DNA of 38,466 bases from Gemmatimonadota bacterium (GCA_038128265.1 JAYPJE010000041.1:1-38466); one strand, 5' to 3'. Positions 16 through 25,222 are shown, numbered from the stretch's first letter. Numbers and translations: made by a program. The notes: a model not told the origin generated them from the sequence alone.

Positions 16-999
16 CTAATCCCACTCTAAAAACCAGCGCAGCTCCTCTAAGGTCGTCGCCTGTTGATAGGTCGGGTCGCTCAGCTCGAGCTGAAAGCGC
101 TCGGCAGCGACGGCATCTCCGGCGCGGCGAAACTCGGCCCAGTCGCGGTAGCTCAGCGCCTTGATATTGCTCGTTTGTCGCAAGAATTGAAAAAGGGGAT
201 CAAACCACTGGCGCCATAGCTCGTCGCCGCTCTTGGGTGTTCTGCTCATGGGGGTCGCCGTTTCCAATAGAACGGGATAGCTGCGTTCGGCCGCTTCGGC
301 GACAAAGGAATGCGCCGTGCGCTGGTTCAACTCAGCCGGCGTGTAGACGTCGATCGACCACCAGTCGACGTATTCGTCCCCCGGGTAGAGTGCCATATAC
401 TTGCGGTGTCCATCGGCGGCTATCGACCACACCAAGGCAACGTGCTGCAGATTCCAGCGGTCCCGCAGCGTCTGGGCTAGGCGCTGCCAGGCCCGCTGAT
501 AGGATTCGGGATCGTAGTCGTTCCACGGGTTGTTGCACTCGGGGCCAACGCGCAAAAAGGCAGGGCGGCCCAGCTGAGTTAGACCGAAGCACAGCGCGTC
601 AATGGCCTCGTCGAGCCGGCCATCGCTCACGGCCTGTGCATAGGACTGACCGGCGCTGGCCATGCCTACGTCAATTTGCAGTAAAAGGTAGTGTTCGTGG
701 CGAGCGAGCAGGTCGCGCAGGGGCAAATACCAGTCATAGGGCAGGGTTGCCAAGTCATACGCTACTTCGTAGTAAGCCGGCTGTGTGCGCTCCAAGCTAC
801 TGCGGTCGGTAAATGGATCAAAGTCTATGCCGGATCCAAACAGAATTCGATCGCCGCGCGGCTCTAACCGCTGTAAGAAATCGCTGCGCGAAGCAAAGGA
901 AGGGAGCCGGTCGGACGAAGAGGACTCGTCGGTTGCAATGTAGGTGGGAGCACAGCCCAGATAAGATAGCAGCAAAAGAGAGAGATATACCGTTCGCAT
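16..999 (-). CDS. Glycoside hydrolase family 26-like lipoprotein
   Basis: Lipobox-like N-terminus (LLLLSYLG-C); GH26-like motifs RPAFLRVGPECNNPWN, VWS, YPGDEYVDWWSIDVY and PVLLET. Confidence 0.7.
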   Translation of the reverse strand: MRTVYLSLLLLSYLGCAPTYIATDESSSSDRLPSFASRSDFLQRLEPRGDRILFGSGIDFDPFTDRSSLERTQPAYYEVAYDLATLPYDWYLPLRDLLARHEHYLLLQIDVGMASAGQSYAQAVSDGRLDEAIDALCFGLTQLGRPAFLRVGPECNNPWNDYDPESYQRAWQRLAQTLRDRWNLQHVALVWSIAADGHRKYMALYPGDEYVDWWSIDVYTPAELNQRTAHSFVAEAAERSYPVLLETATPMSRTPKSGDELWRQWFDPLFQFLRQTSNIKALSYRDWAEFRRAGDAVAAERFQLELSDPTYQQATTLEELRWFLEWD

Positions 1000-22203: not shown

Positions 22204-23772
22204 TTAGAAAAAGCGGTTGTGCAGTCGGACTTCTATGCCTTCGAATCCCAATATTTCGTAGCAGGTGCCCGACGTACAGGCCAGTCCCGCGCGCCGCTGG
22301 CCTGCAAACAGGTTTAGATTGTGGTCGGTTCCCAAATCGGCATTGAGGGTTAAACCGCGCCACCACGTGGTACCAGAGGGGTCGGCACCGGTGGCCAATA
22401 TGTCTGTGCTGCGTTCGAGCTGTACGGCGGCGGAAATACCCGAAGATCGGTGCGCAGCCACGTTAAAGTAGAGATTGTTGTAGGGATATTTCGAGGAGCC
22501 GAAACGCCGGTCGACCTTTTGGAACTGCACATCGAACTCGAGCGTATACTGCGGATTAGCGGACCAGGTCCACAGCGTTCCAAGGATGCGGTGTCGCTGG
22601 TCGTCGAGAATCTGGTTGCGATTAAAGTCGACGAAAAACTGGGCCTCGACGAACTCGCCCAGAGGTGAGTTGAGCTGCAGAAAGAGTTCGCGCAGACTTC
22701 TGTCGTCCGCCGTGCCGGGCATCAGTTGGCGCACGGCACGCGTCCAGTTGACGGTGAGAATGTGCCCGCCGTTGGACGTATAGCTCAATTCGCCTTGGAA
22801 ACCGCGTTCGTCGTCGGCCAGCAGGTCGTGCGTAATGCGATTGAGCAGGTAGGCGGCGTGTTCGCGAATCAGCGGGGGTGGGTTATTAATCTGAGTGAGG
22901 GCGAAGTCGCGGTAATCCTTGAACTCGAAGCTGAGTCCCCACGGTCCACTCGCCACGGTCGTAGATAAATAGAGCGCGCGACCTAAATCGCGGTCGAGCG
23001 AGAAAAAGCGCGCGGCTTCGGGATCGCGCTGTGCGTATTCACCATAGACATCGGCATCGATTTTGGGCAGGCCGAGGTCGGCCAGCAAGCGCGCGAGGCG
23101 CAGGCGAACGCTGAGGGCCGCCCCCACTTCGCGCCGATTGCCGACGTCGTAGTGCAGCAGGCTCAAGCCGGTATCCAAGTATCGACGGGGCCGCAGCGTG
23201 AGCGAGCCGCCCTGGATGGTGCCCTGGCGGCGGTCAACTGCCTTGAGCCCGGGCGGCAGGTCGGAATTGACCGGCGTGCCGCGCAGGAGCTGTAGGTGGC
23301 CCCATGGCTTGTTATAGCGCACGTGGAATCCGTCGAGGTCACTGACGATTTGATAGCGTTGCCGCCTGCTGCGCTCTTCGGTAAGGACGCCAGGTAATTC
23401 GAATGCGTGTGCGAGCAGGCCGCTGCCGACAATGGTATAGAAATGGCCCAACGTCGCCTGCAAGGGACCGCGGCGGTAGGATGCGAAGCGCTGGAGAATT
23501 TCGCCGTAGTGGCGGCCGGGTTCGCTCGAGCCAAAGGTTTCAGCGCGGATACCCACGCGGACGTCGTTCAGCGCATAGCCGAAGTTGAGCTGGTAATACA
23601 GAGTGCGAAGGTCGTTCGGTTCTTCGCCGGGCAGGTTGCCGATCTGTAATTCGTTCAGGCTCGAAAGCTGCAATTGAGCCTGAAGAGGAGTGGCTAGCAG
23701 CGCGGCGATAAGGAGCAGAATGGATGAGCTGAGAGAGCGCCTTGGGTGCGTCTCGTTGGATGGGTCGCGCAT
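22204..23772 (-). CDS. DUF6029-like outer-membrane beta-barrel protein with C-terminal CxxGxC motif
   Basis: Signal peptide ending LQA; amphipathic beta-strands; GHFYTIVGSGLL, EFKDY, NNPPPLIREH, ERGFQGEL; C-terminal GLACTSGTC...FEG and terminal Phe. Confidence 0.75.
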   Translation of the reverse strand: MRDPSNETHPRRSLSSSILLLIAALLATPLQAQLQLSSLNELQIGNLPGEEPNDLRTLYYQLNFGYALNDVRVGIRAETFGSSEPGRHYGEILQRFASYRRGPLQATLGHFYTIVGSGLLAHAFELPGVLTEERSRRQRYQIVSDLDGFHVRYNKPWGHLQLLRGTPVNSDLPPGLKAVDRRQGTIQGGSLTLRPRRYLDTGLSLLHYDVGNRREVGAALSVRLRLARLLADLGLPKIDADVYGEYAQRDPEAARFFSLDRDLGRALYLSTTVASGPWGLSFEFKDYRDFALTQINNPPPLIREHAAYLLNRITHDLLADDERGFQGELSYTSNGGHILTVNWTRAVRQLMPGTADDRSLRELFLQLNSPLGEFVEAQFFVDFNRNQILDDQRHRILGTLWTWSANPQYTLEFDVQFQKVDRRFGSSKYPYNNLYFNVAAHRSSGISAAVQLERSTDILATGADPSGTTWWRGLTLNADLGTDHNLNLFAGQRRAGLACTSGTCYEILGFEGIEVRLHNRFF

Positions 23773-23818
23773 TGCGACAATATATAGAACGGGATCTCTT
23801 CGGCAAAGCGCCGATTTT

Positions 23819-23838
23819 TTCGCGGTTTAAACCGCGAA
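23819..23838. promoter_or_regulatory. Perfect 20-bp palindrome, candidate operator in divergent promoter region
   Basis: TTCGCGGTTTAAACCGCGAA is its own reverse complement; TATACT (-10-like) at 23846-23851. Confidence 0.55.
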
Positions 23839-23896
23839 GTACGCGTATACTTAGGGGACGATCGAACACCGTATGCTGGGAGTTGAATACGCTGCT

Positions 23897-24388
23897 ATGA
23901 GAAGGGTTGCTATCATTGCGCTGTGCTTGTTGATAGGCAGTATCGCCAGAGCGGAGAAAGCACCGCAGCTGGTGCTGGAAAATATAGACGGATCGACGTT
24001 CTCGCTGGCCGAGGCGCTACAAGCGGGGCCGGTCGTCTTTGATTTCTGGGCGACTTGGTGCAAGCCATGTATCAAGGGGCTGCCCAAGATGCAAGCGGTA
24101 GCCAGCGCCTATGAGAAGCGGGGCGTGCAGGTGCTGACGATCAACGTCGATGGTCCGCGCAACCGACCCAAGGTGCGCCCTTTTATGCAGCGCTACAAAA
24201 TCGACCTGCCCGTTTTGCTCGACGATACAAACGAGGTATTGCCATTGTTTCACCTGGCGGGGGTGCCGGCTTCGTTGATCATAGCATCCGATGGAACGGT
24301 GTTTTACAAGCACGAGGGCTATCGGCCTGGAGACGCGGATAAGCTCAGGGAAAAGCTGGACGAATTGTTGATTCTTGAGGAGAAGTAA
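23897..24388 (+). CDS. TlpA/ResA-family thiol-disulfide oxidoreductase, exported
   Basis: Signal peptide ending ARA; DFWATWCKPC; GVP cis-Pro loop; start MRRVA at 23897 (alternative 23873). Confidence 0.93.
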   Translation: MRRVAIIALCLLIGSIARAEKAPQLVLENIDGSTFSLAEALQAGPVVFDFWATWCKPCIKGLPKMQAVASAYEKRGVQVLTINVDGPRNRPKVRPFMQRYKIDLPVLLDDTNEVLPLFHLAGVPASLIIASDGTVFYKHEGYRPGDADKLREKLDELLILEEK

Positions 24389-24391
24389 ACC

Positions 24392-25222
24392 ATGCGCATA
24401 ATACGAGTTATTCTAGCCTCGGTTCTAGTGTCCACGCTGGCTGTTGCCCAGTCGCGGGTGGGCGAACCGGCGGCTGATTTCACGCTGCAGTCGTTGGAAG
24501 GGGATGCGGTTTCCCTAAGCGATTTTAAAGGCCAGGTGGTGTTCATTAACTTCTTTGGCTTTAACTGACCCTTCTGTATCGCGGAGGCCGCGAAAGTAGA
24601 AAATATCTGGCGTGAGTTTGCCTCAGATCACTTCCAAACCATCGGCTTGGACATGTATGATGGTCGGGTCGATCAGGTGCGGATTCAGTTTAAAGAGAAT
24701 ACCGGAACGACGTATCCCCTGCTATTAGAAGCCAGCTCGGTTGGGCCGCTATATGGTCTTGGGCGCGACTTTTATATGGTGATCGACCACCGTGGAATCG
24801 TGCGCTACCGCACCACTGACGGCGTCGGTCTGGGCGCGCGCTTTGATGAGGCCAGCATTCGCGCGGCGATTGCAGAGGCGTTAGACGAACTGGCCCAGGA
24901 GCAAGCGGCCGCTACGGCCGTAGCGGAAGAAGAGGGCGTGCCGGATGCCTTTGGATGGATGATCAACTATCCCAACCCGTTCAACGCCAGCACGGCCATT
25001 CACTTTAACTTGGCACAGGCCAAACCAGTTACGCTGGACATCTACGATGTGCGGGGCCAATGGGTCCGGCGCCTGTGGCATGGACCGCTGGAAGCTGGAG
25101 AGCACCAAATGCACTGGGATGGACGCGATGATCGGGGATTTGCGGCAGCGACCGGTACCTATCTGGGCTGGCTCCGATCCGCCGAAGAGACCCAAGTGCA
25201 GAAAATGCTGCTTCTGCGCTGA
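24392..25222 (+). CDS. Selenocysteine-containing TlpA/peroxiredoxin-like redoxin (UPFC) with signal peptide and C-terminal FlgD-Ig/T9SS-type-A-like domain, 276 aa
   Basis: GAGGAG RBS at 24377-24382; ATG 24392; MRIIRVILASVLVSTLAVAQSRVGEPAADFTLQSLEGDAVSLSDFKGQVVFINFFGFN-(TGA 24566-24568)-PFCIAE continues in frame into the 24647..25222 ORF; C-terminus NYPNPFN...WDGRDDRG...GTY...KMLLLR. Confidence 0.88.
24572..24601 (+). promoter_or_regulatory. Putative bacterial SECIS element
   Basis: Upper stem TCGCGG(24579-84)/CCGCGA(24588-93) with AGG loop beginning 16 nt after the UGA; lower stem TTCTGT(24572-77)/GTAGAA(24596-601). Confidence 0.75.

Follow-up and report, generated by a model that had tools for sequence, protein, structure and literature searches.

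In the described DsbD/CcdA cascades, reducing power is passed to thioredoxin-fold proteins such as TlpA, ResA and CcmG, whose known clients (cytochrome c, ScoI, CoxB) are periplasmic. To our knowledge, thiol-reducing pathways end in the periplasm. The question addressed here is what keeps cysteine enzymes and thioredoxin-like proteins in the reduced state when they are displayed on the surface or secreted beyond the outer membrane. We analyzed a 38,466-nt stretch of DNA, referred to as the window (Gemmatimonadota bacterium, GCA_038128265.1 JAYPJE010000041.1:1-38466). A three-gene module at positions 22204-25222 encodes a DUF6029-family outer-membrane β-barrel, a TlpA-like reductase and a redoxin that contains selenocysteine (Sec-redoxin). 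In contrast to the known cascades, the constant partner of the TlpA-like protein is here the outer-membrane barrel, and structure prediction places the reductase within the barrel lumen.

The organism of the window is a Candidatus Latescibacterota metagenome-assembled genome. Relatives of the module are assigned to this phylum, some of them being labelled Gemmatimonadota or uncultured bacterium, and the stretch is also present in estuary, marine and biofilm metagenomes. No paper on the module was found in the literature, supplements not being covered by the search.

Conservation and content of the module

The gene-context data come from Latescibacterota genomes. A phylum-wide pattern scan matched 191 stretches, of which 125 encode relatives and 80 were kept, giving 78 loci; the relatives reached by the word-based homolog search are all at least 48% identical. 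The TlpA-like gene adjoins the barrel gene in 76 of the 78 loci, and the two exceptions (L119 and L129) are truncated at the end of a contig. A Sec-redoxin gene with an in-frame TGA is found at 56 of the 78, and two loci hold extra copies in which the codon reads Cys. The genes occur in 14 orders, the most frequent being T-B+U- (23 loci), T+B+ (17), T+B+U+ (11), U-T-B+ (8) and B+U-T- (7), where T is the TlpA-like gene, B the barrel, U the Sec-redoxin and the sign the strand. The window belongs to the U-T-B+ type. The initial annotation had named absence of conserved synteny as a ground for abandoning the proposed relay; the synteny is instead strongly kept. Since the linkage survives many rearrangements, we take these data as strong evidence for a functional unit, with TlpA and the barrel as its core and the Sec-redoxin as a frequent third member.

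An initial look genome by genome gave a similar picture. DUF6029 matches occur in 27 of 41 related genomes, with coordinates that coincide with those of the Sec-redoxin. Barrel, TlpA and redoxin stand together at 14 loci in four arrangements, and at 14 further loci (including a sister family and the genome G015) TlpA lies next to the barrel without a redoxin. According to the initial annotation, DUF6029 genes neighbor TlpA and Omp28-like genes in FCB bacteria. The TlpA part holds for this phylum, while no Omp28-like gene is present at the window locus. A porA-like gene is likewise absent from the module of the window.

The features of the module are as follows.

22204-23772, minus strand: DUF6029-family outer-membrane β-barrel, 522 aa, with a signal peptide, about 24 transmembrane strands and a C-terminal aromatic residue (Pfam PF19494; AlphaFold2 model)
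22261-22278, minus strand: codons for C499-T-S-G-T-C504, the sole Cys pair of the barrel, at the tip of a short β-hairpin (residues 496-507) before the last strand
23773-23872, no strand: divergent spacer between the barrel gene and the tlpA-redoxin pair, 100 nt by open reading frame (ORF) coordinates, 124 nt with the TlpA start at 23897
23873-24388, plus strand: TlpA/ResA-like periplasmic thioredoxin-fold protein, 171 aa, with WCKPC (C63, 24059-24061; C66, 24068-24070)
24392-25222, plus strand: selenoprotein redoxin, 276 aa, with a signal peptide, an AhpC/TSA-type thioredoxin fold containing U59-P-F-C62, an Ala/Glu-rich linker and a FlgD_ig / type IX secretion system (T9SS) type A C-terminal domain
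24566-24568, plus strand: in-frame TGA, assigned to selenocysteine U59; also TGA in related loci and in contigs of other studies, Cys in paralogs
24572-24601, plus strand: hairpin resembling a selenocysteine insertion sequence (SECIS), upper stem 24579-24584 with 24588-24593, loop AGG, lower stem weaker
24968-25219, plus strand: FlgD_ig / T9SS type A C-terminal domain of the redoxin, residues about 193-276

The barrel contains exactly two cysteines, C499 and C504, within CTSGTC. Beyond C63 and C66 the TlpA-like protein has one further Cys, inside the signal peptide; orthologs point to the ATG at 23897 as its real start. In the redoxin, U59 and C62 of the motif FNUPFC are the only thiol or selenol residues, and the ORF runs for 276 codons only with readthrough of the TGA. 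Its ATG (24392) follows the TlpA stop codon (24386-24388) after a gap of 3 nt. Sec-type (secretory) signal peptides were read by eye at the N-termini of all three proteins. The layout described in the initial annotation is thereby borne out: three exported-type genes share one short divergent intergenic region, each protein carries one thiol or selenol pair (CTSGTC, CKPC, UPFC) and the two redoxin genes are 3 nt apart. The spacer contains one weak sigma-70-like site on the minus strand (23806-23779); promoter and terminator scans gave no more sites than shuffled sequence.

The barrel matches DUF6029 with 50.7 bits against a cut-off of 27 (E 1.5e-13), over profile positions 60-336 of 538 only. 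Its relatives carry the NCBI name 'DUF6029 family protein', and no NCBIfam model matched. Both redoxins are AhpC-TSA/Redoxin proteins by Pfam, the TlpA-like protein with E-values of 3.8e-21 (AhpC-TSA, PF00578) and 1.9e-16 (Redoxin, PF08534). The latter protein has the thioredoxin fold, the WCxxC motif, the cis-Pro and the eye-read signal peptide of the TlpA family. It stays under the NCBIfam cut-offs for TlpA (NF047696, 46.9 against 230 bits) and ResA (NF002854, 94.3 against 170 bits). The closest solved chain is 2m72_A (E 4e-19), with ResA and TlpA chains among the closest. By sequence the protein is TlpA-like and not an equivalog, with ResA and TlpA nearest.

No conserved flanking gene beyond the trio was found among 48 proteins of 7 loci; neighbors seen in these flanks include tilS-ftsH, a GFO/IDH oxidoreductase and an SDF symporter. 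A few single loci have other genes nearby. At a barrel-TlpA pair without Sec-redoxin in G015 (L117:8100-10814), the gene beside TlpA codes for 905 aa, comprising a cohesin-like domain and the FlgD_ig tail also found in the redoxin. Near the module of another relative (L091:10247-13456) lies a gene whose 1070-aa product combines an N-terminal dockerin with LDL-receptor class B repeats and propeller repeats of the NHL/SGL type. In one relative, an ORF of 92 aa at a distance of about 3 kb (L144:2276-2551) encodes a Thoeris ThsB TIR-like domain (E 2.7e-18) and is probably unrelated to the module.

Selenocysteine and export of the redoxin

The in-frame TGA of the redoxin is conserved. Among the matches listed to the redoxin domain in the 41 related genomes, 25 places in 18 genomes have one in-frame TGA and one place has none. 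In 23 of 24 rebuilt redoxin ORFs the stop falls at the aligned UxxC position, and the remaining ORF reads Cys. Across the 78-locus set, the in-frame stops within redoxin matches are TGA in 60/60 cases and never TAA or TAG; Cys-form copies are also found in L156 and L162. The sequence is conserved on either side of the codon. Contigs from four runs of four other studies have the TGA without a listed difference, and two divergent contigs of other studies differ at flanking sites, e.g. 24553 and 24571.

Downstream of the codon, at a constant distance, lies a hairpin. Its stem, from +13 to +29 relative to the TGA, was compared in 35 distinct sequences from two clades: 93% of the cells are paired, compared with 22-50% in slid controls. 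At pair 16-26, 18 of these sequences have U-A and 17 have G-C; this compensatory change amounts to about one event and hence provides modest evidence. In a third clade the stem is a different one, shifted by one register, and 91% paired. The genome of the window encodes SelB (356 bits), SelA (553 bits) and SelD (355 bits), all above the cut-offs, and a tRNA-Sec scores above the cut-off in four of five related genomes searched. Taken together, the conserved TGA, the Cys-form paralogs, the hairpin after the codon, the selA, selB and selD genes and the retention of the TGA in other studies identify the redoxin as a genuine UxxC selenoprotein by sequence criteria. The selD gene, which is located outside the window (G000:C18:70299-71222), also contains one in-frame TGA, and the selenophosphate synthetase of this organism is itself probably a selenoprotein. 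In a redoxin paralog far from any barrel (L061, G015:C1:4136420-4137229), a TAG stands two codons 5' of the TGA, and this copy may be in decay.

Standard gene calling splits the redoxin into ORFs of 58 and 191 aa, as would be expected if the TGA marked a broken gene and the neighborhood had arisen by chance. We give this explanation practically no credence. A decaying gene does not account for one codon holding TGA in all 60 in-frame stops, for the conservation on both sides of it or for its unchanged state in contigs of other studies, and chance does not account for the synteny of TlpA and the Sec-redoxin. The pseudogene reading of the TGA was accordingly rejected.

Other identities of the redoxin were also considered. 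A peroxiredoxin (AhpC, BCP or PrxU) was rejected: positions -3 and -7 from U59 are Gly and Ile, against the pattern P-x3-T/S-x2-C(U), the scores are far from the model cut-offs (PrxU 16.2 against 270 bits, BCP 24.1 against 140 bits) and U59 aligns with the first Cys of the TlpA CxxC. The Omp28-related selenoprotein family (NCBIfam NF045500) gave no match at E up to 0.01, and there was no match to Omp28 in Pfam either. The Sec-redoxin reaches none of the curated NCBIfam selenoprotein models.

The C-terminal tail of the redoxin matches FlgD_ig with 47.5 bits (cut-off 27) and the T9SS type A sorting domain TIGR04183 with 27.9 bits (cut-off 23), while the Pfam Por_Secre_tail score of 22.5 bits is below its cut-off of 27. 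The T9SS components SprA (593 bits) and PorU (657 bits) are found above the cut-offs in the same genome, and a PorV-like gene beside PorU scores 172 bits, below 250. Some 50 open frames of this genome end in the same type of T9SS tail. Of the 60 Sec-redoxins rebuilt from the 78 loci, 35 have a T9SS-like tail, 17 a dockerin-like tail behind DUF1573/HYDIN-type Ig domains, and eight are short, cut or masked. Because most Sec-redoxins carry T9SS-like or dockerin-like tails, export past the periplasm appears to be the usual design, by more than one route. None of the papers listed for this combination links a selenoprotein to T9SS.

The second clade (L132-L164, e.g. L135:7640-8620) has its Sec-redoxin 3' of the barrel on the same strand. 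In place of the T9SS tail, these proteins end in one that resembles a dockerin or an EF-hand, preceded by one or two Ig domains of the DUF1573/HYDIN type; several of the loci contain two tandem selenocysteine copies or a Cys-form copy. In two congeners (L088:3124-5040 and L089:3422-5338), a 639-aa fusion has a beta-lactamase-family (PF00144) hydrolase domain inserted between the redoxin and the T9SS tail, which by its domain content ties the redoxin to an extracellular hydrolase.

The predicted TlpA-barrel complex

In TlpA, D57, W59, T61, C63, K64, P65, C66 and P132 are invariant (77/77 sequences). In the barrel, A498, C499, G502, C504 and Y505 as well as the preceding RR-x-G are invariant (75/75 sequences), and invariant blocks also occur in the most conserved stretches of the barrel, three long loops that span residues 112-145, 168-184 and 289-321 (minus strand, window 22810-23439). 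A barrel profile search against 1.84 billion representatives returned 1,031 clusters at E up to 0.001. Among the 150 best representatives, 127 have a C-x4-C within the last 45 residues, and 22 of the 23 that lack it stop short of the C-terminal part of the profile. On these alignments the Cys pair is a family-wide feature of the barrel that is lost only as a pair. We propose the C-terminal C-x-x-G-x-C hairpin as a candidate signature of DUF6029; it is not a Pfam criterion.

An AlphaFold2 model of the barrel from 75 sequences reached a predicted local distance difference test (pLDDT) value of 83.1 and a predicted template modelling score of 0.77, with the same secondary structure as a model from eight sequences. 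It consists of about 24 long strands, with turns of 2-5 residues on one side and longer loops on the opposite side. The three conserved loops have the lowest AlphaFold confidence when the barrel is folded alone. A short hairpin (496-500/503-507) is located between the strand 484-493 and the last strand 510-520. The C-terminus of an outer-membrane barrel sits in the periplasm. From this, the strand parity and the loop lengths, we infer that the Cys hairpin is anchored at the extracellular rim and points down, with its tip part-way down the lumen or wall.

The complex was folded from barrel residues 33-522 (75-row alignment) and TlpA residues 28-171 (77 rows). Three runs scored 0.88, 0.90 and 0.89, and the best of three controls scored 0.00. 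Scores at this mark were attained by 116 of 157 solved complexes and by 2 of 215 mismatched pairs; since the alignments were our own, these figures apply here only approximately. At least 95% of the contacts are common to the runs, with a partner pLDDT of at least 87. We know of no solved complex of comparable kind, so that a pass by memorisation is unlikely.

The predicted interface comprises 166-175 residue pairs and involves barrel residues on almost every strand. Contacts often alternate along the strands (33/35/37/39 and 518/520/522), with the polar residues Q33, Q35, S37, H518 and R520 touching the partner; we read this as the lumen face. The contacts further involve the hairpin tip (S501/G502), the short turns that we assign to the periplasmic rim, and parts of two conserved loops (112-128 and 297-306). 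On the TlpA side, the interface includes residues 60-64 (A-T-W-C63-K) and 127-130, just ahead of the cis-Pro. The model thus predicts that TlpA enters the barrel from the periplasm and sits within its lumen, the catalytic face turned toward the in-folded loops and the hairpin.

Foldseek searches of the PDB with the first barrel model returned generic large barrels only. The best structural match to the barrel is the FimD usher pore (Z 18.9, root-mean-square deviation 4.8, 360 aligned residues); other matches include the PapC pore (Z 18.0), MtrB (Z 15.0, root-mean-square deviation 4.7, 372 aligned), Wzi (2ynk_A, Z 14.1, over residues 33-404 only) and LptD (Z 10.1); sequence identity to the ushers is about 10%. 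The resemblance to pores that pass folded Ig-like domains raises the possibility that the barrel is a dedicated outer-membrane translocon or anchor for neighboring thioredoxin-fold or Ig-tailed proteins. TlpA would then be a plug, a gatekeeper or a chaperone that keeps the Cys or selenocysteine of the cargo reduced, and the model with TlpA in the lumen would represent a resting or transit state. Such a role would provide the exit route that is otherwise needed by the 17 of 60 Sec-redoxins with dockerin-like tails, which belong to one clade, and by the few without a tail. According to the available part of one report, PorA reaches the surface independently of the T9SS machinery (PMC7712824), which would fit the same idea. 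We nevertheless consider a translocon unlikely. There is no candidate cargo gene beside TlpA and the barrel at 17 loci, the redoxin of the window has a T9SS tail in a genome with SprA and PorU, and a plain pore has no need for an invariant CxxC in TlpA or an invariant Cys pair in the barrel.

The match to Wzi, a barrel of 18 strands, bears on a different possibility, in which the barrel is a channel for solutes or polymers (disulfide, sulfur or selenium compounds, or polysaccharide), gated by docking of TlpA or by reduction of the hairpin, with redoxins processing the passengers. 'DUF6029' appears in the literature in a polysaccharide-export context: in the part of the paper available, Wzi-barrel homologs are reported to resemble DUF6029 by HHpred and a polysaccharide role is suggested (PMC9603273). 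The three long, highly conserved loops of low confidence could form a gate. Wzi ranks below the ushers, the Occ porins and MtrB, however, no polysaccharide-export gene occurs among the 48 flanking proteins, and no transporter or substrate-binding gene travels with the module. A channel therefore appears quite unlikely to us.

A putative redox route across the envelope

The reading that we tentatively favor, without holding it to be established, is an envelope thiol/selenol redox module built on a plug-and-barrel complex, in which reducing power would run from TlpA through the barrel to a surface redoxin. A DsbD-type inner-membrane protein would reduce TlpA; the genome contains one DsbD_TM gene as a candidate electron source. 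TlpA would dock from the periplasm in the lumen of the approximately 24-strand DUF6029 barrel, placing the CKPC segment and the stretch before the cis-Pro against the tip of the Cys hairpin, which would hang into the lumen, and against those in-folded loops that are best conserved. From TlpA, reducing equivalents would go to C499/C504, or through the lumen, and on to redoxins on the outer side of the outer membrane. The Sec-redoxin would play the part of this acceptor in the present genome; the Sec pathway would export it first, and T9SS would then do so by way of the C-terminal domain. By its general chemistry, selenocysteine would suit an oxidising exterior, and could here provide fast exchange and resistance to irreversible over-oxidation. 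Likely clients would be disulfides of extracellular substrates or cysteines of surface enzymes.

Several observations weigh against this redox reading. The binding of TlpA to the barrel is a matter of model confidence and not a measurement. The residues listed for the interface include S501/G502 but not C499 and C504. The initial annotation had looked to such a model for a lumenal Cys loop in contact with the redoxin motif; the docking of TlpA in the lumen, with the CKPC segment and the hairpin tip in the interface, bears this out in part. The Cys hairpin is among the less confident parts of the barrel model, with pLDDT values of 67-78 by block. With its active site turned to the lumen, a plug cannot face DsbD at the same time. 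The redox reading thus requires TlpA to dock and undock, as a static plug could not be re-reduced.

The redoxin raises further difficulties. At 17 loci with complete flanks, TlpA and the barrel are present without any redoxin, and selA was found in all five tested genomes with such loci, so that the Sec-redoxin cannot be the universal acceptor. Sec-redoxin paralogs also occur away from barrels, at four places in G015 and in G026 and G030, where no DUF6029 match was found. The hairpin of the window itself is no more stable than shuffled sequence (z -0.64). A tRNA-Sec was not found in the 84%-complete assembly, the best Rfam score being 43.2 bits against 47 and none of the 20 tRNAs detected by aragorn being tRNA-Sec. 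These 20 are all the tRNA genes that aragorn detects in a 4.29-Mb assembly of 102 contigs; RNA genes are under-assembled in this genome, and their absence carries little meaning.

The last of these points concerns the Cys pair itself. P0181, the sole full-length barrel among the best 150 without the pair, has Tyr and Phe in place of both cysteines, a substitution that fits a structural staple. A C-x4-C over a tight turn commonly staples hairpins. On this explanation TlpA would be dedicated to the folding or isomerisation of the barrel, in the way DsbC acts on LptD, and the Sec-redoxin an unrelated neighbor with clients of its own, which would agree with its being dispensable at 17 loci. A reductase kept one-to-one across a phylum for a single disulfide would be unusual, however. 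The very large predicted interface involves the lumen of a folded barrel and not an unfolded substrate, and the linkage to the redoxin persists through many rearrangements. We regard a purely structural role as very unlikely.

The question of how thiols stay reduced outside the outer membrane is made testable by three results: a phylum-wide reductase-barrel unit, a high-scoring, control-clean model of the reductase in the barrel and a frequent, secretion-tagged selenoprotein. DUF6029 gains a concrete partner in the TlpA-like reductase. The module also adds an exported-type UxxC selenoprotein family, tagged for T9SS or with dockerin, which standard gene calling splits in two. The reductase-in-barrel unit would be categorically new if reducing power were shown to cross the outer membrane.

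Each component has described counterparts. With the members of the DsbD/CcdA cascades, the TlpA-like protein shares the fold, the signal peptide, the WCxPC motif, the cis-Pro and the presence of a DsbD_TM gene in the genome. Known bacterial UxxC selenoproteins with a thioredoxin fold (Prx-like, thiol:disulfide oxidoreductase-like, NCBIfam WAxxUGC, PrxU and Omp28-related) likewise have selenocysteine at the nucleophilic position of a CxxC-type motif, Cys-form homologs and a hairpin within the coding sequence. The present redoxin differs in its F-G-x-x-U-x-x-C motif, its T9SS or dockerin-like tail and its tie to a barrel gene. HBP35 of Porphyromonas gingivalis is likewise a thioredoxin-fold protein with a T9SS C-terminal domain at the cell surface. 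Vesicle proteome lists of the same species (PMC13744359, PMC4335976) include PG_2174 and PG2175, the latter as 'thioredoxin domain-containing protein', and in the portions of the literature available the two locus tags appear in such lists only. The passages on PorA that were covered mention neither an operon nor neighbors of this kind. Compared with the P. gingivalis set, the third partner here is an AhpC/TSA-type selenoprotein and there is no Omp28-like lipoprotein. If the link to the P. gingivalis genes is true, the module would bear on the upkeep of active surface cysteine proteases there.

The barrel, with about 24 strands, is close in size to the FimD and PapC chaperone-usher pores, which have 24. 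Unlike these, it has no usher plug and no N- or C-terminal usher domains, and no chaperone or pilin genes are found near it among the 48 flanking proteins of 7 loci. The insertion of a soluble periplasmic protein into a very large barrel, predicted only in the present case, is known for LptE in LptD, the latter being a weak structural match to our barrel, and for MtrA in MtrB (6r2q). In the Mtr system electrons move through the inserted protein to a partner on the surface, and our proposal follows the same logic; the chemistry here would be thiol/selenol in place of hemes, and there is no sequence relationship. Whether the module is a thiol/selenol counterpart of the MtrCAB porin-cytochrome conduit, and with it the first route for disulfide-reducing power across a bacterial outer membrane, is a possibility that we regard as somewhat doubtful.

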